A stretch of 64,000 bases of DNA from IMG/VR virus record IMGVR_UViG_3300050138_000571, positions 9,784 through 73,783 of that record. One strand, 5' to 3'. A model generated the notes under the pieces. It made no database searches. It was not told the origin of the DNA and was given only the letters and a program-made list of their open reading frames with translations. Origin of the DNA: a virus. This document shows, in pieces, positions 8,149-41,018 of the stretch (positions within the stretch are counted from its first letter, which is position 1; every line of letters begins with the position of its first letter). The position numbers and the translations under genes were made by a program.

Positions 8149-8762
8149 TGGGTCCTTTGGGTGAACGCACGACCCATCAGGATGGCGTCTGCGATGTCGT
8201 TGTCTTTTTGAATCAGGGTCAGGCCGTAGAGATCGTTCGCCAACCGAACAGCTAGGTGTTTCTTGTTCACCTTGCCTTTGATGCCCAGGGCCTTCTTGTC
8301 GACTTTTCCTCCGGCAGCCTTGGCCGCCTTTGTCGCCTTCGAGAGCGCCGTATTGGCTTTCTTGTCCTCCTTGCTCATCCACATTCCGACCGCTTTGCGC
8401 CACTCAGACGTGTCCATGTACGTCATCGGGAGCCTGCCCTGGACACGCTTAAGGAAAGCGAAGTGGATGAACTCCAAGGCCCGCTGCGTGTTGCGGTTCT
8501 TACCCTTGTTGGTGTTCTCGGCAACGATCGCGTCCACTCCGCCCACCGAAGCGATCAGCTCGTCGATCTGGTCGACCACCTGCTCTGCGGCCGTGACGAT
8601 GTTGTAGGGGTATGCTGGCGATTTTTGGGGGTCCTTGTTCACGTTGAAGTCCGTGATCAAGACCTTTGGGAGCAACCCAGAACGTTCCAGCTTTCCGTCG
8701 ACAAACAACGCCCAACCAGTCGACGTGCTGATGTCCAAAGAGAGCACGCGCGAGAGACTCAT
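8145..8762 (-). CDS. RuvC-like Holliday junction resolvase
   Basis: LSLDISTSTGWA, IVAEN, EWRKAVG, DIADAILMG RNase H-fold catalytic pattern. Confidence 0.75.
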   Translation of the reverse strand: MSLSRVLSLDISTSTGWALFVDGKLERSGLLPKVLITDFNVNKDPQKSPAYPYNIVTAAEQVVDQIDELIASVGGVDAIVAENTNKGKNRNTQRALEFIHFAFLKRVQGRLPMTYMDTSEWRKAVGMWMSKEDKKANTALSKATKAAKAAGGKVDKKALGIKGKVNKKHLAVRLANDLYGLTLIQKDNDIADAILMGRAFTQRTQ

Positions 8763-8771
8763 CGTCCCCCG

Positions 8772-8778
8772 ATGATTG
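8772..8778 (-). promoter_or_regulatory. Motif B (CAATCAT)
   Basis: 10 nt before the RuvC-like ATG. Confidence 0.6.
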
Positions 8779-8782
8779 GTAG

Positions 8783-9043
8783 CTAGCCCTCCAGCTCGTG
8801 AATCTCGAAGTCGTCGCCCAAGGCGAGCGCGAACATCACGATCTTCGTGTTGTCATCGGGAGCCATCACCGCATCCAAGTGCCTCTTGATCCGATCGAAC
8901 TCCTTTACCGGGATGTCGTCCGACTTGAAAACCAAGAACAGCGTTCGCTTGTTCCCTGCCTCTACGGTGTACTGTTTTACGGAGTACCCCTCCACCGTGA
9001 CTTCGGTGGACGGGACCACGACGACGTTGACCTTCCTGCCCAT
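8783..9043 (-). CDS. Hypothetical protein
   Basis: Tightly packed in the minus-strand operon. Confidence 0.55.
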   Translation of the reverse strand: MGRKVNVVVVPSTEVTVEGYSVKQYTVEAGNKRTLFLVFKSDDIPVKEFDRIKRHLDAVMAPDDNTKIVMFALALGDDFEIHELEG

Positions 9044-9047
9044 GGCC

Positions 9048-9377
9048 TTAGAGCCCCTGCTCGCGCTCGGCCGCGTCCTGGTTCTCCTCGGCGACCGTGT
9101 CGGCGTCGAAAGATCCTGTGTCCTTGCCGGCGTCGGCCAGGGCCCGGTGGCAAAAGAGGACGCGAAGCTTGTTCATCTTCGTGCCTTCACGGTAGATGGC
9201 TCCGGCATCCTTGGCGGCCTCGCGTTTCTGAGCGAGGTCGAGGTCGGCGTCCTTGGCCTGGAGTAGCTCAACCTGATTGAGAGAGACCGTCGTGATGAGT
9301 GAGCGGATCTCGCCCTCGCCCATCTTGAAGACAGTGTCCTTGAAGTCGGAGTCGAGTGCTGCGAATGGGTCTTTCAT
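9048..9377 (-). CDS. Hypothetical helical protein
   Basis: First ORF after the motif at 9434; natural composition. Confidence 0.6.
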   Translation of the reverse strand: MKDPFAALDSDFKDTVFKMGEGEIRSLITTVSLNQVELLQAKDADLDLAQKREAAKDAGAIYREGTKMNKLRVLFCHRALADAGKDTGSFDADTVAEENQDAAEREQGL

Positions 9378-9759: not shown

Positions 9760-9992
9760 GCCGCCGCCTTGTGGCATTCGAAGTCGTGCTCGCAGGCCTT
9801 GCAGTAGCGCTCCGAAGAACCACTGTCACCGCCCTTGAACTCCCCGCAGACCGCGGGAAGGTGTTGCGGGTCAGCGTACGACAGGGGATCGCAAATGCAC
9901 CCCTCGGGCCGAACCGGAGGCCGGAAGGCGTGATGTGAGCCAGAGCGCTCACCGCAGCCCGGTTCTACGCAGACGTCGTGATCGAAGTCCAT
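9756..9992 (-). CDS. Small Cys/His-rich protein
   Basis: CVEPGCG..H, CICD, CGEF, CKACEH..CH; coupled to neighbours. Confidence 0.5.
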   Translation of the reverse strand: MDFDHDVCVEPGCGERSGSHHAFRPPVRPEGCICDPLSYADPQHLPAVCGEFKGGDSGSSERYCKACEHDFECHKAAA

Positions 9993-25971: not shown

Positions 25972-27762
25972 ATGTCCCGTCGCTTCGCCAATTTCGTAAG
26001 TTGTCATGTCCATCCGAACAGCCTCGACAGCGGATCTACTCCGGAGTCGTTCGCTGAACGTGAGGCTGAGCTAGAGACCGGCGCCATCACGTGCACGGAT
26101 CACGGGACGCTCCAGGCCGCTCCCAAGATTTACGATCTCGGAAAAGAGAAGGGGCTGACGCCGATCGTCGGCATCGAGGCGTATTTCCGGGATGACGAGT
26201 GCAGCATCCTGACCGCCAACGGCTACCAGAAGAACGAGCGCGGAGGATTCATCAGCGCGCCGAAATACATGCACATCACTTTGCACGCGATGGACTACCT
26301 CGCGTACCGGTGCATGGTCCGGCTGATCTCTCGCGCCGACACCCGCCTCGAAGCTGACAAAGAGCGGATGGAGCCCGTCCACCGGAAAATGGGCAGTGAA
26401 CGGAAGGCTTTGTTCCGCTGGGCCGACCTAGAGGAACTGGGCACGCACAATGTGACGGCGACATCAGGCTGCATGACCGGCGTCTGCAAGCGCCACATCC
26501 TCGACAATGATGACCCGAAAACTGCAATTCAGTACTTCGAGCGCCTCAAGTCCACGTTCAAGCCCGGTAACTTCTACGTCGAGCTGAACCCCCACGACAC
26601 CAGTCACGACTGGATCCAGGGCGTCTTCATCACAACGATCGACGGGACCGAACACAAGCTCTATGACGGGAAGATCGTCATGACGGACGCCGGGGAAATC
26701 CGGGCCGGCCAGCTGGCGAAGGAGTGGACGTTCGGGAAGCATCACATCCTCAAGTCAATCAAGGACCGCAGCAAGTGGCGGGAGATGGCTGAGGCCCAGA
26801 TAGTCAAGGTGGAGCAGCGAGAGGGGTTCGACCGCAACGAGTGTCGGCCCTGGGCGCAGGACGGCAACTACGAGGCCGCCTTGAACCGATTCATGTTCAT
26901 CCTCGCGAAGAAGCATGGGGTTCCCATCACCATCGGGGACGACTCGCATTACTCGACCGCGGGCTTGGCCATCGTTCAGGACGTGCGGCTCTCTCAGAAA
27001 GGGCCGTGGCGCTTTTACACCGGCGGCAAGCACAACACCTACCACCGGATGACGAGCGACGAGGCCTGGACTCATTTCCAGTCCATGCCGGGAGTCGGTG
27101 AGAAGGAATTCGAGAGCTGGATCGCCAACTCTCACGACCATGCCAGCCGCTTCAAAGACTTCAAGTTCGAGTCGGTGCCGTCGTTACCGACCAGATTCTA
27201 CGAGGCCGAGTACCAAAAGCGGCCCTGGTACGTGACCGGGAAGGCCGACAACAGCATCCGCTACACCATGGAGCTGATCCGCAAGCAAGGCCGGATGCGC
27301 TGGGACGACGCGAAGTACGTGAGGCGTCTCCGGCAAGAGATCGACTTGCTGCACGGCAACGGAACCATCGATCTGCTGCCGTATTTCATGATCGACGAGG
27401 ACGTCTGTTCCACGTACGAGCTGGCAGAGGAGTTGACGGGTCCGGGCCGAGGTTCGGCGGCCGGCGCGCTCATCAGCTATCTCCTCGGGATCACCCACGT
27501 CGACCCGCTCAAGTACGACCTGTCGCTCGACCGCTTCCTGACGAAGGACCGTATCAGCTCGGGGCGCTTGCCCGACATTGACCAGGATCTAAGTAGCCGC
27601 GACCTGCTGACCGGTGGCGACGGGTCCAACTACGTCGAAATCGAACTGGACGATGGATCGAAAAAGATCGCGCGAGCGACAGCCAAGGTCACCACCGACG
27701 AAGGCGAAGTCACCGTGCAGGAAGCGTTCGATCGCGGCCTCGACATTCGGAGTTGGACATGA
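25972..27762 (+). CDS. dnaE: DNA polymerase III alpha, N-terminal fragment (PHP domain plus first half of palm)
   Basis: PHP ligands HVH, SLD, TDHG, GIEAY, HITL, SGC, DDSHY; GPGRGSAAG.LISYLLGIT.VDP; RLPDIDQD with two catalytic Asp. Confidence 0.92.
   Translation: MSRRFANFVSCHVHPNSLDSGSTPESFAEREAELETGAITCTDHGTLQAAPKIYDLGKEKGLTPIVGIEAYFRDDECSILTANGYQKNERGGFISAPKYMHITLHAMDYLAYRCMVRLISRADTRLEADKERMEPVHRKMGSERKALFRWADLEELGTHNVTATSGCMTGVCKRHILDNDDPKTAIQYFERLKSTFKPGNFYVELNPHDTSHDWIQGVFITTIDGTEHKLYDGKIVMTDAGEIRAGQLAKEWTFGKHHILKSIKDRSKWREMAEAQIVKVEQREGFDRNECRPWAQDGNYEAALNRFMFILAKKHGVPITIGDDSHYSTAGLAIVQDVRLSQKGPWRFYTGGKHNTYHRMTSDEAWTHFQSMPGVGEKEFESWIANSHDHASRFKDFKFESVPSLPTRFYEAEYQKRPWYVTGKADNSIRYTMELIRKQGRMRWDDAKYVRRLRQEIDLLHGNGTIDLLPYFMIDEDVCSTYELAEELTGPGRGSAAGALISYLLGITHVDPLKYDLSLDRFLTKDRISSGRLPDIDQDLSSRDLLTGGDGSNYVEIELDDGSKKIARATAKVTTDEGEVTVQEAFDRGLDIRSWT
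26623..26826 (+). other. Intein/HINT block-B-like insertion in the DnaE PHP domain
   Basis: VFITTIDGTEHKLYDGKIVMTDAGEIRAGQL ... AQIVKVEQ inserted between YVELNPH and N...LAKK.GVP...DSHY. Confidence 0.55.
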
Positions 27763-27788
27763 AAATCACGTCCTTGAAGGTCGTGTCG
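27631..27788 (+). other. Split, splicing-deficient intein-like remnant spanning the DnaE gene junction
   Basis: YVEIELDDGSKKIARATAKVTTDEGEVTVQEAFDRGLDIRSWT* followed by MKITSLKVVS. No Cys/Ser1 block A, no TxxH His, no terminal His-Asn. Confidence 0.7.
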
Positions 27789-30197
27789 GACGCCGAGAGC
27801 GGCTGGCTCCATCGCAGGTTCGGGGACCATGTCGCCCAGATCTCGGTCGAGACGAAGATGAAGATGCGGCTCGCAGTCCGCGACGTCTCCCGCCAACAGA
27901 GAGGCTACGTTAACCCTGAAATCGAGCTTTTGGCCAAGAAGTTCCCGGAGCCGCCTCAAGGCGTGGAGGACCTCGACTTCGTCCTCGGATACGACAATGA
28001 CGAGGGGCACCAGCAAGGCGCCATCGAGGTCGATGCGGCCATCCAGGAGTACGTACGCCTCTACCCCGGGGACTGGGAGATCGTGCAGCAGTGCCTCGGG
28101 TTGGCGCGGCAGCGCTCCCGGCACGCGTGCGCCTACGTCATCGGCAATGAACCCATAGAGCAGATGATCCCGCTCACCACCGTCGGTGGAGTGCGAGTCA
28201 CGGCCTACAACGCTCCTGCCGTCGAGGCCGTTGGGGGCCTCAAGATGGACTTCTTGGTCGTCAACTCGCTGAAGGACATCGGCGACTGCATCAAGCTGAT
28301 CCAGAAGCGGCACCCGGAGTTCGAGTACAAAGAGAGTTCGATCAACGGGCTCCGGGTGCCCCGGTTTCGCCAGATCCCGGCCCCCGGCGGCCTGGCCGAC
28401 ATCTGGGATCTTCCGGACGATCAAAACGTGTTCATGGACGTGTCGCAAGGCCGCACGGAGACCGTCTTCCAGTTCAACACCGAGGGCGCAATCAAGTGGT
28501 TGAAGCACTTCAACTACAAGAAGCCCAACGGGAACTTCGCGATCGATTCGATCGCAACGATGGCCTATTTCACCGCGCTCGACCGTCCCGGCCCCCTCAA
28601 CGCCTACGTGTCCAACCCCGAAGAAGAGGACGCCAAGCACAACATGCTCGTCGAGTATGCGCGTCGCGCCCGCGGAGCCCCGAAGAGCCCAGACATTCTG
28701 CCGATCTTCGACGAGCTGCTCCCCCACATGAACGGCATCATGATCACGCAGGAAGCGATGCAGTACATGTACCAGACCCTAACAGGGTGTTCTGGTCCCG
28801 AGGCCGAGGAGTTTCGCTCGAACGTCGCCAAGAAGAAGATGACGAAGGTCGAGAAAGCCTACCTACCATTCATCGAGTCCGCGGCCCGGAAGATCGGCAA
28901 AGAGAACGCCGAGGCCGTGTGGAAGAACTTCATCACGTTCGGCCAGTACGGCTTCAATTTCAGCCACGCCGTCTGCTACTCCGTCATAGGCTATGCCTGT
29001 GCCTACCTGAAGCACCACTATCCGCTGGAGTGGTGGGCGTCCGTGCTCTCGAACGCCTCGAAAAACGAGGTGTCCGACAAGTTCTGGGTGCATTGCGGGC
29101 AGCTCATCAAGCTTCCCGACGTCACGAAGTCCGGGGACAGGTTCACGATCGCAGGGGACTACATTCAGGCCCCGCTGAACGTGATCAAAGGGGTCGGCGA
29201 CGGCGCCCACGCTCAGCTCTCGAAGTACGGGCCCTACATGGACATCCTCGATTTCTGCCGAAAGATAGAGAAGCACCGCGTGGCCGGCGGCGGATACGTC
29301 ATGAAGACGGTGAAGTACAAGGACAAAGACAACAAGGTCCTTAATCCGGAAACCGGTCGACTGGTTTCGACCGACGCCACCAAGGAGAAGCGGACGTTCA
29401 AAAGGGGACCCAACGCGCTCAATGCTGGCGTCGTCAACGTGTTGATGGCGTCTGGCGCAATGGACGGCCTGTTTGCGGAAGGTCTCACCCTCGCAGAACA
29501 GATGGTCGAATACGAGGCCGCGATGGCCGCGGCAGAGACCGAGACCAACATGGCCAAGGCAGAAAAAGGGGAGGTCGTCCGCCCCGTTAAACCAAAGAAG
29601 GTGGATCCGAGCGACTTCAACCTCAATGGTTTACAGCAGTACCAGTCCCGCAAGGCCGTGTTGCCGATCTATGGCGCCGACCTCATCCCTATGGTGATTC
29701 GCTCGGGCAAACTCGATACCCTCAAGCAGTACCCGGGCCGTGCACTTATGGAGTGGACCTCACCGTTCAACGGAAAGGCCAGCGTCATCAAAGTGATTAA
29801 CGCCGACGAGTTGTCTCACGACGAGGACTTTGTCGTAAAGGACAAGAAATCGATCAATGTGGCAGTCGCCGCGTACATCGAAGACGTCGAGATCCGTAAG
29901 TATGGACCGCTGCTAAAAGAAATGGTTAAGGTCAAGCTCGACGTTGAAGGAGCGCGCTTCGAGTTGGTCAAATTCTCCGGCAAAGCAGGCCTAGTCCCAG
30001 ATTGCTTCCGGCAACCGCTGAAGGGGGCAATCGCGATCGTGGTCCTGAATAAGTGGACAAACGATCGTCCTTTTGGGCCCGAAGCCGTGTTCGTGATCGA
30101 GCCACCAATGTCCCACTCAAGGGCAGGAGCGGAGGATTGCGGGCCCGCGACCCCCTCAGCCAACAATGACGGGAGCGAGGCCTCGGAGGTTCCGTAG
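27759..30197 (+). CDS. dnaE: DNA polymerase III alpha, C-terminal fragment
   Basis: FGDHVAQI, RHAC.YVI, GLKMDFL (third catalytic Asp), T..VFQF, ALDRPGP, YGFNFSHAVCY, IKGVG. ATG 27759 overlaps the stop of the N-fragment (ATGA). Confidence 0.92.
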   Translation: MKITSLKVVSDAESGWLHRRFGDHVAQISVETKMKMRLAVRDVSRQQRGYVNPEIELLAKKFPEPPQGVEDLDFVLGYDNDEGHQQGAIEVDAAIQEYVRLYPGDWEIVQQCLGLARQRSRHACAYVIGNEPIEQMIPLTTVGGVRVTAYNAPAVEAVGGLKMDFLVVNSLKDIGDCIKLIQKRHPEFEYKESSINGLRVPRFRQIPAPGGLADIWDLPDDQNVFMDVSQGRTETVFQFNTEGAIKWLKHFNYKKPNGNFAIDSIATMAYFTALDRPGPLNAYVSNPEEEDAKHNMLVEYARRARGAPKSPDILPIFDELLPHMNGIMITQEAMQYMYQTLTGCSGPEAEEFRSNVAKKKMTKVEKAYLPFIESAARKIGKENAEAVWKNFITFGQYGFNFSHAVCYSVIGYACAYLKHHYPLEWWASVLSNASKNEVSDKFWVHCGQLIKLPDVTKSGDRFTIAGDYIQAPLNVIKGVGDGAHAQLSKYGPYMDILDFCRKIEKHRVAGGGYVMKTVKYKDKDNKVLNPETGRLVSTDATKEKRTFKRGPNALNAGVVNVLMASGAMDGLFAEGLTLAEQMVEYEAAMAAAETETNMAKAEKGEVVRPVKPKKVDPSDFNLNGLQQYQSRKAVLPIYGADLIPMVIRSGKLDTLKQYPGRALMEWTSPFNGKASVIKVINADELSHDEDFVVKDKKSINVAVAAYIEDVEIRKYGPLLKEMVKVKLDVEGARFELVKFSGKAGLVPDCFRQPLKGAIAIVVLNKWTNDRPFGPEAVFVIEPPMSHSRAGAEDCGPATPSANNDGSEASEVP

Positions 30198-39845: not shown

Positions 39846-40478
39846 ATGTTCACCAAGGACGAGTACAACAAGCTGAATGAGCTGGTTTTCCGCGATGACT
39901 ATTCCGGCTACAAGCCGACGGTCCTGGAGATCCCCAACGGTGACAGCAAGGTCGACGCCGAGAAGCGTTACGCGCATGTTGCAACAAAGTACTTCACGAC
40001 GGCCCAGCAACGGATCGACCTGATGCCATTCCTGCAGAAGGCCCACAAGCTGGCAATGGACATCGCGGTCGCCATTCGGATGCCGCCCGAGTTCCATCCG
40101 CAGATGGAGGTAAGCGCCCTTCGCGTTCTGGAGTACCCACCTGGAGCATTCAGCAACGAACACTGCGATTTTGACCTGTTTACCCTGTCGCTCTACCGAG
40201 ACCAACCCGATCGGTTCGTCTCAAAGAGCATGGGCAACGACACTCTCCGCTACGTTCGGTACTACAATTTGCAGGCGCACATGGGCGAGCTGGGTACGGA
40301 GATCGGGCTCGGAGAGGCGACTCCCCACTCGGTACTGCCGAGCGAGACGGTACAGCGCTCGATCGTCTACTTCGCGATCCCGGCCTGGGACGCGACCCTC
40401 CCGTCGGGCGTCAAGGTTCGAGACTGGCTGAACTCCAGAATGGCCAGGAGCCGTACAGAATTCAAGACGTACGAATGA
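39846..40478 (+). CDS. 2-oxoglutarate/Fe(II) dioxygenase, IPNS-like
   Basis: LRVLEYP, HCDFDLFTL (HxD), HMGEL, PHSV (distal His), RSIVYF (RxS). Confidence 0.75.
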   Translation: MFTKDEYNKLNELVFRDDYSGYKPTVLEIPNGDSKVDAEKRYAHVATKYFTTAQQRIDLMPFLQKAHKLAMDIAVAIRMPPEFHPQMEVSALRVLEYPPGAFSNEHCDFDLFTLSLYRDQPDRFVSKSMGNDTLRYVRYYNLQAHMGELGTEIGLGEATPHSVLPSETVQRSIVYFAIPAWDATLPSGVKVRDWLNSRMARSRTEFKTYE

Positions 40479-41018
40479 CAAAAAAGTGCAGGGGATGTCC
40501 ACAAACAGATGACGACCGGACAAAATTTCACGGGCACCCCAAAAACAAGAACCGCCTCCAGTCCTGGTGCATAGCGTGCGCGAAGGCGCAGGCCGCCCTT
40601 CCAGAAAACAAGGCACAGCGCAATGCCCGCCTGGCTCTTCCAGAAAACAGGGCAAAGAAGGCCGTCTACTGCTCCGATTACAACGCTCGCCCCGAAGTCA
40701 AAAGTGAAGAACGCCGACAACTACCTTCGTCGTTTCTACAAAATAAGCCTAGCGCAGCGCGACGCCCTGCTGGAGTCACAGGGTGGCCGATGCGCCAATC
40801 CGGGTTGCCGCACTGACACTCCTGGAGGCAACAAGACGTTCCATCTAGACCACGACCACTCCTGCTGCCCAGGCGATGAATCATGCGGTAAGTGCATACG
40901 AGGACTGCTCTGCCACGACTGCAACGTAGGGAGCGGACTTTTCGATGACGATCCCGTCAAACTCCAGGGGCACGCTGACTACCTGAAAGCGTGGGCGGAT
41001 CGGAAGGCCGGCAAATGA
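40475..41018 (+). pseudogene. Endonuclease VII-family gene broken by a +1 frameshift near 40700
   Basis: Zn-finger N-terminus in frame 40475. EndoVII core (YKISL....LLESQGG.CA..C......LDHDH...C..CIRGLLC..CN..G) is in the +1 frame. Switch falls at GTCAAAAGTG. Confidence 0.65.

Follow-up and report, generated by a model that had tools for sequence, protein, structure and literature searches.

Split-intein remnants without splicing residues at the break of a two-gene phage DnaE

Two overlapping genes for one polymerase

The stretch of DNA analyzed here (the window) comprises 64,000 nucleotides of the IMG/VR virus record IMGVR_UViG_3300050138_000571 (positions 9,784 to 73,783), a 96-kb viral contig. 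In it the DNA polymerase DnaE (Pol III alpha type) is encoded by two adjacent genes, dnaE-N and dnaE-C, whose broken ends carry additional peptides, the tail and the head, that resemble parts of the N-terminal (IntN) and C-terminal (IntC) halves of a split intein. The nearest cultured relative is Myxococcus phage Mx1, in which DnaE is a continuous protein of 1289 amino acids (aa) and whose gene neighbourhood is syntenic with the window (phosphatase, small open reading frame (ORF), DnaE, ORF, SSB, RecA-like). DNA near-identical to the window occurs in peat metagenomes of several studies, and we refer to its source as an Mx1-like phage of peat metagenomes. The features at and around the break, all on the plus strand, are as follows.

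25972-27762, + strand: dnaE-N, ORF of 596 aa (Pfam PHP and DNA_pol3_alpha; PHROG 405, DNA polymerase), comprising the PHP domain, the N-terminal half of the palm with PDIDQD and a 50-aa tail that is very probably intein-derived
27571-27588, + strand: PDIDQD motif with two catalytic Asp, on the N fragment
27610-27759, + strand: tail, N residues 547-596, homologous to the second (N2) half of a split-intein IntN, with the Thr and His of block B replaced
27749-27752, + strand: GGAG, Shine-Dalgarno-like, 6 nt 5' of the dnaE-C ATG, lying inside the tail codons R-S-W and kept in the relative L003
27759-27762, + strand: ATGA start/stop overlap (ATG 27759-27761, TGA 27760-27762)
27759-27800, + strand: head, C residues 1-14, of which residues 1-10 form a basic beta-strand like the first strand of IntC; a 4-aa linker follows, then GWL
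27759-30197, + strand: dnaE-C, 812 aa counted from the ATG, with Pfam matches, comprising the head, the C-terminal half of the palm with the third Asp, the fingers and HhH
28242-28256, + strand: KMDFL motif with the third catalytic Asp, on the C fragment

Over the two chains Pfam finds PHP, DNA_pol3_alpha, DNA_pol3_finger and HHH_6, and both PDIDQD and KMDFL are present, as in DnaE of the Pol III alpha type. A single DNA_pol3_alpha model is shared out between the chains, with profile positions 20-111 on N (to residue 543) and 121-259 on C (from residue 18). The break falls in the palm, between the PDIDQD strand and the following helix, at a point where unsplit relatives read ..RDLLVDPETGWLKKRFGDH.. 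and where the window has an extra ~50 residues at the end of the N chain and 14 at the start of the C chain. Translated upstream of the ATG, the dnaE-C frame gives Arg-rich nonsense, which assigns the tail to the N frame. The ATGA overlap suggests translational coupling of dnaE-N and dnaE-C, in which case DnaE would be made as two polypeptides from coupled genes, each with part of a broken palm. An earlier note on this DNA, made from its letters, had described two genes with an ATGA overlap and a break inside the palm that leaves PDIDQD on N and KMDFL on C; the ORF coordinates and the sequence bear out the former, the Pfam split and the motif positions the latter, and the tail and head sequences that it quoted read identically on checking.

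The earlier note had also proposed that reads and relatives be consulted across 27750-27770, and contigs and relatives agree with the split. This interval is crossed without differences or indels by contigs of four peat-metagenome runs with three study codes, although one of the four may be the window's own source sample. In L003 (a 168.6-kb contig with 86% nucleotide identity in the dnaE stretch) the ATGA junction is identical, amid numerous substitutions and a 6-nt indel within the tail that keeps the frame. Among 5.8 billion proteins searched, at least 69 further distinct N fragments (519-631 aa) terminate in a homologous tail, the matching C fragments start M-K-(I/V)-x-x-(I/L/W)-(K/T), and every split member seen carries the tail. 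An assembly indel or a programmed frameshift is rejected in view of the identical junction in independent assemblies with no indels and the lack of a slippery heptamer at 27750-27762.

That the locus yields one chain at the protein level by any such route, whether assembly indel, programmed frameshift, read-through or non-canonical splicing, is barely credible. The frames do overlap by 4 nt, in the relative L005 the stop is followed directly by the start in the same frame, and naturally fused versions exist. The agreement of the independent assemblies argues against a single chain nonetheless, as do relatives in which the halves stand apart, with a 409-430-nt gap that holds an endonuclease gene, or a 144-aa ORF, in between. 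Splicing, for its part, would have to proceed from an N-junction residue that is not a conserved nucleophile to a head without a terminal Asn and a Gly at +1, with the Cys1-bearing N1 lobe absent and the extein continuing straight into the N2 lobe. The two-gene DnaE of Mx1-like phages should not be labelled a pseudogene or a frameshift in annotation.

Intein homology of the tail and the head

When a profile built from 70 homologous tails (that of the window and 69 others) was compared with all PDB sequences, the top matches were all DnaE split inteins (7qil, E 6e-9; Ssp 1zd7, E 5e-8; Npu, E 1e-7 to 2.5e-7), followed by the gp41-1 intein (E 5e-4), and tail positions 4-47 were aligned with intein residues ~52-97. 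An exhaustive hmmsearch of the same profile against 1.84 billion representatives gave 261 matches at E <= 1e-3. The best 150 of these were inspected, 140 of them newly returned proteins, and besides members of the family these 140 included 9 contiguous inteins and 59 IntN halves with TxxH at protein C-termini; the latter are true split inteins, because the intact TxxH stands at the very C-terminus of the protein. The best IntN matches (P0212 and P0213, 58-59 bits) belong to a split intein at the FN.SHS./C site of DnaE (the slash here and below marks an insertion point). By BLASTP the window tail shares 18/37 identities with the active phage IntN P0212 (E 5e-9) and 13/38 with a cyanobacterial-type IntN (E 2e-5).

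This homology is visible only through the family profile, because database searches with the window's own tail are blank: phmmer of the tail alone against PDB gave 0 matches at E <= 10, and Pfam gave no match on the window tail or head. Pfam on the 70 individual tails gave a single Intein_splicing match (E 0.011). Identity to the window tail falls to 18-22% in the family, and five columns at turn and helix positions (D, G, T, G, A) are conserved in at least 90% of the 70 tails.

The homology covers half of the HINT fold, and what is needed for splicing lies outside it or has been replaced. The N-extein (..PDIDQDLSSRDLL) passes directly into the N2-lobe homologue, with no block A and no N-terminal nucleophile; the ~50-aa N1 lobe is absent and the junction residue is variable (T, V, E, I and others) among the 69 homologous tails. 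The Thr and His columns of TxxH are R and A in the window and P and variable in the family consensus when aligned to DnaE inteins with HMMER, whereas active relatives retain C/A-T-x-D-H. Blocks F and G are likewise missing, with no terminal Asn, a Gly at +1 and no +1 Cys, Ser or Thr. The splicing residues are missing in every family member seen (70 or more). With the Cys1 lobe, TxxH, blocks F and G with their Asn and the +1 nucleophile all absent, no peptide bond would therefore be formed between the halves. An intein in three pieces, with the missing lobes supplied in trans, was considered and rejected, since Cys1 needs covalent attachment after the N-extein, which here runs into the N2 lobe. 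We are thus highly confident that the tail derives from an intein and that splicing has been lost.

A different source for the tail is conceivable within the polymerase itself. An insert of ~85 aa lies in the PHP domain of every family member, in the window at 26572-26952 (N residues 201-327), and, like the tail, it may be a relic, though an older and unsplit one; its profile found no intein in PDB. For the tail being instead a duplicate of this small beta module, with a convergent likeness to inteins, it can be said that the tail matches the PHP-insert profile (hhalign probability 92%, E 6e-7, 37 columns), the insert being present in split and unsplit members alike. This origin is nevertheless very remote, as the tail resembles real inteins far more closely than the insert does, its profile reaching them at E 6e-9 and active IntN halves at 59 bits, the gene break is the canonical split-intein break point, the head matches the starts of IntC, and the composition of the inserted DNA is foreign.

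The head corresponds to the first strand of IntC. The active IntC P0199, from the same gene family, starts MKIVSSKSLG and ends ..MHN/C, and dead heads start MKITSLKVVS (window) or MKIKSIKSAE (L086); because live and dead starts are alike, the head is read as the first IntC strand minus blocks F and G. In 18 aligned heads a linker of 4 to ~20 aa follows and leads into GWL or GWF. The locus thereby has the layout of a fractured gene, with adjacent genes and intein halves at the broken ends, the tail stopping approximately where IntN ends and the head beginning as IntC begins.

Structural models place both peptides in a HINT-like fold. For the insert of the fused homologue P0098 alone (residues 536-622), AlphaFold2 predicts a tail of four strands and a helix with a predicted local distance difference test score (pLDDT) of 73-87. 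The ten best PDB matches of this model in Foldseek are all inteins, Npu DnaE first (E 0.1, probability 0.99, root-mean-square deviation (rmsd) ~3 A), none of them at E <= 1e-3. Against 48,161 representative chains, 28 reach Z >= 2, of which 25 are inteins or Hedgehog HINT domains, and the top chain is again Npu DnaE (Z 4.7). When P0098 is modelled in the context of the palm (residues 430-700), the mean pLDDT is 85, the tail rises to 91-94, and model residues 170-175, in the LTVLRR segment of the head, are now a strand (block pLDDT 84-92). Structure searches with this second model return DnaE structures first and inteins next. The fused Npu intein 4kl5_A superposes on it with Z 6.5 and an rmsd of 2.3 A over 62 residues, model residues 115-185 corresponding to 4kl5_A residues 52-114, i.e. 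to the N2 lobe plus the first IntC strand, and the head strand is placed on Npu intein residues ~101-114. The IntN-only chain 4qfq_A aligns with model residues 115-163 only. MAFFT alignments in which the short heads were misplaced had been left out of the folding.

These results agree closely with what had been read from the letters. The earlier note had likened the tail to the second half of the Npu IntN (~14/40 identities) and the HMMER alignment is essentially identical to its manual one; the absence of all splicing blocks, with Thr and His turned into R and A, extends to the whole family; the likeness of the head to the first IntC strand is matched both by P0199 and by its modelled position; and the comparison with HINT structures that the note had proposed found intein similarity, on the model of the P0098 homologue.

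Distribution of the insertion and its endonuclease gene

IMG/VR pattern scans gave two split relatives, L003 and L005, and most others came from the protein collection and its contigs. Of 11 junctions examined, the window included, three have an Endonuclease VII gene exactly between the tail and the head.

L085:4734-5183: Endonuclease_7 gene
L089:4237-4680: Endonuclease_7 gene
L090:4182-4607: Endonuclease_7 gene

The three genes are orthologous, encode ~141-149 aa with a Cys-rich N-terminal part and an Endonuclease_7 domain (E 3.6e-11 and 1.4e-11), and overlap both neighbours, the tail gene at its end and the head gene at its start, by a few bases. The free-standing endonuclease present there is absent from the window, where a 4-nt overlap joins the halves, as in L003 and L093. 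Elsewhere the stop is followed directly by an in-frame start (L005) or a 22-nt gap (L086). In L091, a relative of the 'WW' tail type, a 144-aa ORF (L091:4303-4737) with no Pfam match stands between tail and head, and this may be another kind of endonuclease or a remnant of one. In five relatives (P0068, P0098, P0214, P0216 and P0217) the tail and the head are re-fused in one frame.

The split is sporadic. On a tree of 156 rows made from the extein of the DnaE N-part, the split state requires 26 changes, of which well-supported branches force at least 17, and the window clade is nested among unsplit genes. In an approximately unbiased (AU) test on a 64-row IQ-TREE tree, monophyly of the split members was rejected (delta lnL 1469, p 1.6e-93), for a split group that had been named with the first tree already in view. 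The split P0011 shares 78% identity with the unsplit P0160 on either side of the site.

Base composition sets the inserted parts apart in the loci that bear the endonuclease. GC content at third codon positions (GC3) is 93-94% in the body of L089, 44% in its tail and 47% in its endonuclease; the respective values are 87-89%, 62% and 51% in L085 and 65-72%, 50% and 32% in L090, and the GC of the head is far below that of the body in these loci. Endonuclease-free loci are mostly ameliorated, the window having 81-83% in the body, 70% in the tail and a head that is not lower. Because this foreign, low GC3 is common to all three parts, we consider that tail, endonuclease and head probably form one mobile cassette. 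Such a cassette would insert between RDLL and GWL of intact dnaE genes, spread by homing and at times be lost or fused, and the window would represent an old copy from which the endonuclease has been lost, leaving the two peptides and the ATGA junction.

The source of the cassette can be sketched in two ways. Both outer parts of a split intein may have been deleted in place, or DNA flanking an endonuclease gene may have been transferred ectopically, in which case the flanks moved would be the 3' end of IntN and the 5' start of IntC; either route is possible. More tentatively, and with slightly less than even confidence, we suggest that tail, endonuclease and head constitute a type of autonomous element new to description, a homing endonuclease gene with a matched pair of non-catalytic half-HINT peptides, of which the window holds a domesticated, endonuclease-free copy. 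Derived from a split intein by shedding all but the capture interface, it could land in an intact essential gene (dnaE, at RDLL/GWL) whose products would then re-associate without RNA or protein splicing. If true, such a 'staple' would be a third way, beside introns and inteins, to render a selfish insertion harmless.

Two side observations concern endonucleases and this site. The window has an Endonuclease VII-like gene at 40623-41018 (family match E 1.2e-20) whose kinship with the cassette endonucleases is no more than distant (E 2e-4); an ORF in another frame (40475-40816) overlaps it and has a Cys-rich start loosely like the N-terminus of the cassette endonuclease, and 40475-41018 may be a frameshifted free-standing endonuclease. 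In the unsplit P0060 a low-complexity acidic insertion (residues ~535-590) lies precisely at RDLL/GWL, which suggests that this loop tolerates insertions.

Other intein sites are occupied in relatives and empty in the window.

28116-28145, + strand: empty second intein site, SRHA/C, which holds an active split intein in relatives
28941-28970, + strand: empty third intein site, GFN./SHA, which holds a full intein in L003 and adjoins the cyanobacterial DnaE site

GQYGFNFSHA (28941-28970) is uninterrupted in the window, in keeping with the earlier note, which had held that the RDLL/GWL site differs from the cyanobacterial DnaE intein site and that the latter is intact here. The SRHA/C split intein of relatives has Cys1, C-T-P-D-H and an HNH-like domain; in the inteins at this site (P0055, P0051, P0096, P0105 and P0165) the HNH-like C-L-R-C-N-W-M-R-G is joined to the IntN end in some cases and has its own out-of-frame ORF in others. 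In L086 (3001-7734) DnaE is in three pieces, the first break carrying a dead tail and head and the second a live IntN and a live IntC that flank an endonuclease ORF. The full intein of L003 (L003:7994-9330; P0001, residues ~405-850) runs from Ser1 to T-S-N/S at GFN./SHA. Its middle is of low complexity in frame, and another frame holds a 353-aa ORF (8265-9326) with no Pfam match, which may be an out-of-frame endonuclease like those of a 2025 actinophage preprint. In other phage DnaE genes, inteins sit inside the catalytic motif itself (LPDID/C; P0323 and P0332), and with P0332 there is a second type of split in the palm of DnaE, one that is competent for splicing. The N fragments P0012, P0033, P0056, P0064 and P0089 (937-1006 aa) have a further 350-400 aa upstream of PDIDQD, and all but P0056 have intein or LAGLIDADG matches in Pfam (PF14528, PF13403, PF14890, PF05204, PF01079, PF03161). 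This phage DnaE family is unusually rich in intein sites.

A candidate latch and its known counterparts

Both peptides have been maintained by selection. Between the window and L003, both endonuclease-free lineages with a synonymous divergence (dS) of ~0.65-0.85, the ratio of non-synonymous to synonymous rates (dN/dS) comes to 0.13 in the tail, where 18 changes are synonymous and 11 non-synonymous, to 0.05 in the head and to 0.07-0.09 in the polymerase body; the tail and the head are thus under purifying selection. Their charges are opposite, with a mean of -3.5 for the first strand of the tail and +2.1 for the heads. Strands that pair across the two halves of split inteins have been reported to show the same polarity, acidic on the N-side and basic on the C-side (PMC2677866). 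When the tail (50 aa) and the head (30 aa) were modelled as two chains, the interface score ipSAE (interaction prediction score from aligned errors) was 0.35, against 0.02 for the best of 3 controls, which was graded as weak support. The predictions share at least 88% of contacts between runs and the partner pLDDT is at least 52. In the calibration of this score, 58 of 80 solved complexes and 2 of 110 mismatched pairs came up to the mark; with scores of at most 0.60, only 7 of the 80 solved complexes did so, together with both of the mismatches that passed. These counts apply only roughly here, as custom alignments were used.

These results suggest a model for how the two chains could come together. 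The N chain would end in a dead copy of the second half of IntN (~50 residues) and the C chain would open with a copy of the first strand of IntC (~10). The tail's first strand, which is acidic, may zip with the basic strand of the head by beta-strand complementation into a half-HINT module. Contact between these strands is what begins the assembly of real split inteins. The module could then dock and orient the halves of the palm so that the three catalytic Asp are brought together. Judged from the models, a remnant that acts as a latch holding the DnaE halves together is plausible, and we lean towards the view that tail and head bind in a way that matters for assembly or activity. The composite picture, a dead split-intein latch that originated in a mobile cassette, is in our judgement reasonably likely. 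The earlier note had pictured an intein reduced to a latch for a two-chain polymerase; the intein derivation holds (profile E 6e-9), whereas a reduction specific to this lineage does not, since what is seen is a widespread and sporadic cassette in which an Endonuclease VII gene is often included.

A number of observations weigh against this picture. The score for the complex of tail and head sits in the weak band, and the case for binding comes from modelling. The insert-only model of P0098 formed no head strand (head pLDDT 52-56), because its alignment is without depth for the head, and the confident in-context model represents, instead of the window's two chains, a fused homologue with only ~29% identity to the window in the tail. 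The fused relatives (P0098, P0214, P0216, P0217 and P0068) retain the insert although they need no tether, and a structural or other role fits this as well as a latch does. The role of a clasp may be the wrong one, because in the split ribonucleotide reductase NrdA of phage Aeh1 comparable tails are essential for activity and not for heterodimer formation (PMC3045599). As to origin, no intact intein at RDLL/GWL is found among the best 150 of the 261 profile matches, the nearest being the contiguous intein of P0323 and the split one of P0332 (553 aa), both at LPDID/C, 13 residues upstream. An ancient insertion that was lost many times, as opposed to many gains, is also compatible with the data, since the similarities among tails depart only in part from those among exteins (Spearman 0.40, with agreement of the nearest neighbours in 17/61).

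The remnant might accordingly be intein-derived without being a tether, the halves of the palm joining through their own large interface while the module is kept because correct local geometry or assembly of a higher order depends on it, or because it now serves, by exaptation, to bind a further protein of the replisome. Besides the Aeh1 tails, needed for activity and dispensable for the heterodimer (PMC3045599), this would account for the undecayed insert of the fused relatives (the P0098 tail scores 89 bits) and for the related module that stands unsplit in the PHP domain of all members (hhalign probability 92%), and purifying selection is compatible with any role at the protein level. It accounts less well for opposite charges on precisely the strands that pair in split inteins, for a modelled head that occupies the place of the first IntC strand, and for a tail and head that by themselves score above controls in complex prediction; we regard it as unlikely, though by no means negligible. 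That the remnant has no role in the protein, being a neutral relic co-inserted with a homing endonuclease and slowly decaying, is highly unlikely. At endonuclease-bearing loci the tail and head do look like freshly imported foreign DNA, the tail has diverged somewhat more rapidly than the body (window and L003 are 79% identical in the former and 92% in the latter), and the linker behind the head varies from 4 to ~20 aa, all of which a relic would explain. A decaying relic would, however, hardly show a dN/dS of 0.13 (tail) and 0.05 (head) in endonuclease-free lineages or structural residues conserved at 90% or more over 70 divergent tails, and no split member is without a tail, which folds confidently in the models.

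The idea of a dead-intein latch has a precedent that the earlier note did not take into account, and its claim needs amending in this respect: the basic concept of assembly tails derived from a mobile element is already present in PMC3045599. In Aeromonas phage Aeh1, insertion of mobE into the ribonucleotide reductase gene creates NrdA-a and NrdA-b with tails that are essential and oppositely charged (Crona et al. 2011; PMC3045599). These tails had no database match, and the authors speculated that they are degenerate split-intein remnants; they are dispensable for heterodimer formation and needed for assembly of the dimer of heterodimers, and retained tails were proposed as a general means to neutralise gene fragmentation (PMC3045599). 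In both systems, on the present reading of the window, a homing endonuclease breaks the gene of an essential enzyme at the active site, there is no splicing, and oppositely charged tails of foreign composition are kept on both fragments. The Aeh1 tails are short and known from one phage, whereas here a large family is involved, intein ancestry can be demonstrated by statistics and structure, and endonuclease-free, endonuclease-bearing and re-fused states coexist. The polarity of charge is also reversed relative to Aeh1, the N tail being acidic here. The speculation of Crona et al. (2011) that tails of fragmented genes are degenerate split-intein halves thereby gains evidence from sequence and structure. 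The mobile-cassette picture, which is moderately supported, is new here.

A search of the literature, whose coverage is incomplete, found no natural, catalytically dead split-intein remnant kept at a gene break. If the present reading is correct, it points to an end-point of intein evolution at which catalysis is gone and the association interface is kept under selection, and suggests that such a pair of peptides, together with a homing endonuclease, can move about as a self-neutralising cassette. The family would also provide dozens of natural, small (~50 + 10 residue) non-splicing complementation pairs, candidates for orthogonal heterodimerisation tags, and a natural system in which to ask which part of a split intein suffices for 'capture'. 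Splicing-dead split inteins have been engineered as affinity or dimerisation tags that rely on the association of IntN with IntC without catalysis. Those are laboratory-made, consisting of full-length halves with catalytic point mutations, whereas the pair described here is natural and would form a truncated half-HINT. Split polymerases are also found in family B, in Methanothermobacter without an intein and in Nanoarchaeum with a split intein, and a link between split site and intein site has been proposed. We know of no report of an intein-derived remnant at the Methanothermobacter break.

The closest counterparts among splicing systems are the natural split inteins of fractured genes in phage-like DNA and the cyanobacterial DnaE split intein of Npu and Ssp. 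Dassa et al. (2009) described fractured genes with split inteins and free-standing endonucleases, three DnaE loci among them, in which the catalytic residues are all kept (PMC2677866). Endonuclease VII-like endonucleases have likewise been tied to phage inteins in a 2025 preprint (10.1101/2025.01.02.630785). The window shares with these systems an essential replication gene in two parts with intein-type peptides at both broken ends, a break at the canonical point of endonuclease insertion and splitting, an acidic strand on the N-side and a basic one on the C-side, an endonuclease gene between the halves (here in relatives) and significant sequence homology. It differs from them in that ~60 of ~140 intein residues are left and, as far as the sequence allows one to judge, none of the five catalytic residues is retained, so that trans-splicing is not expected. 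It differs from the cyanobacterial DnaE intein also in its site, RDLL/GWL in the palm, which is distinct too from LPDID/C, RHA/C, GFN./SHA and FN.SHA/C.

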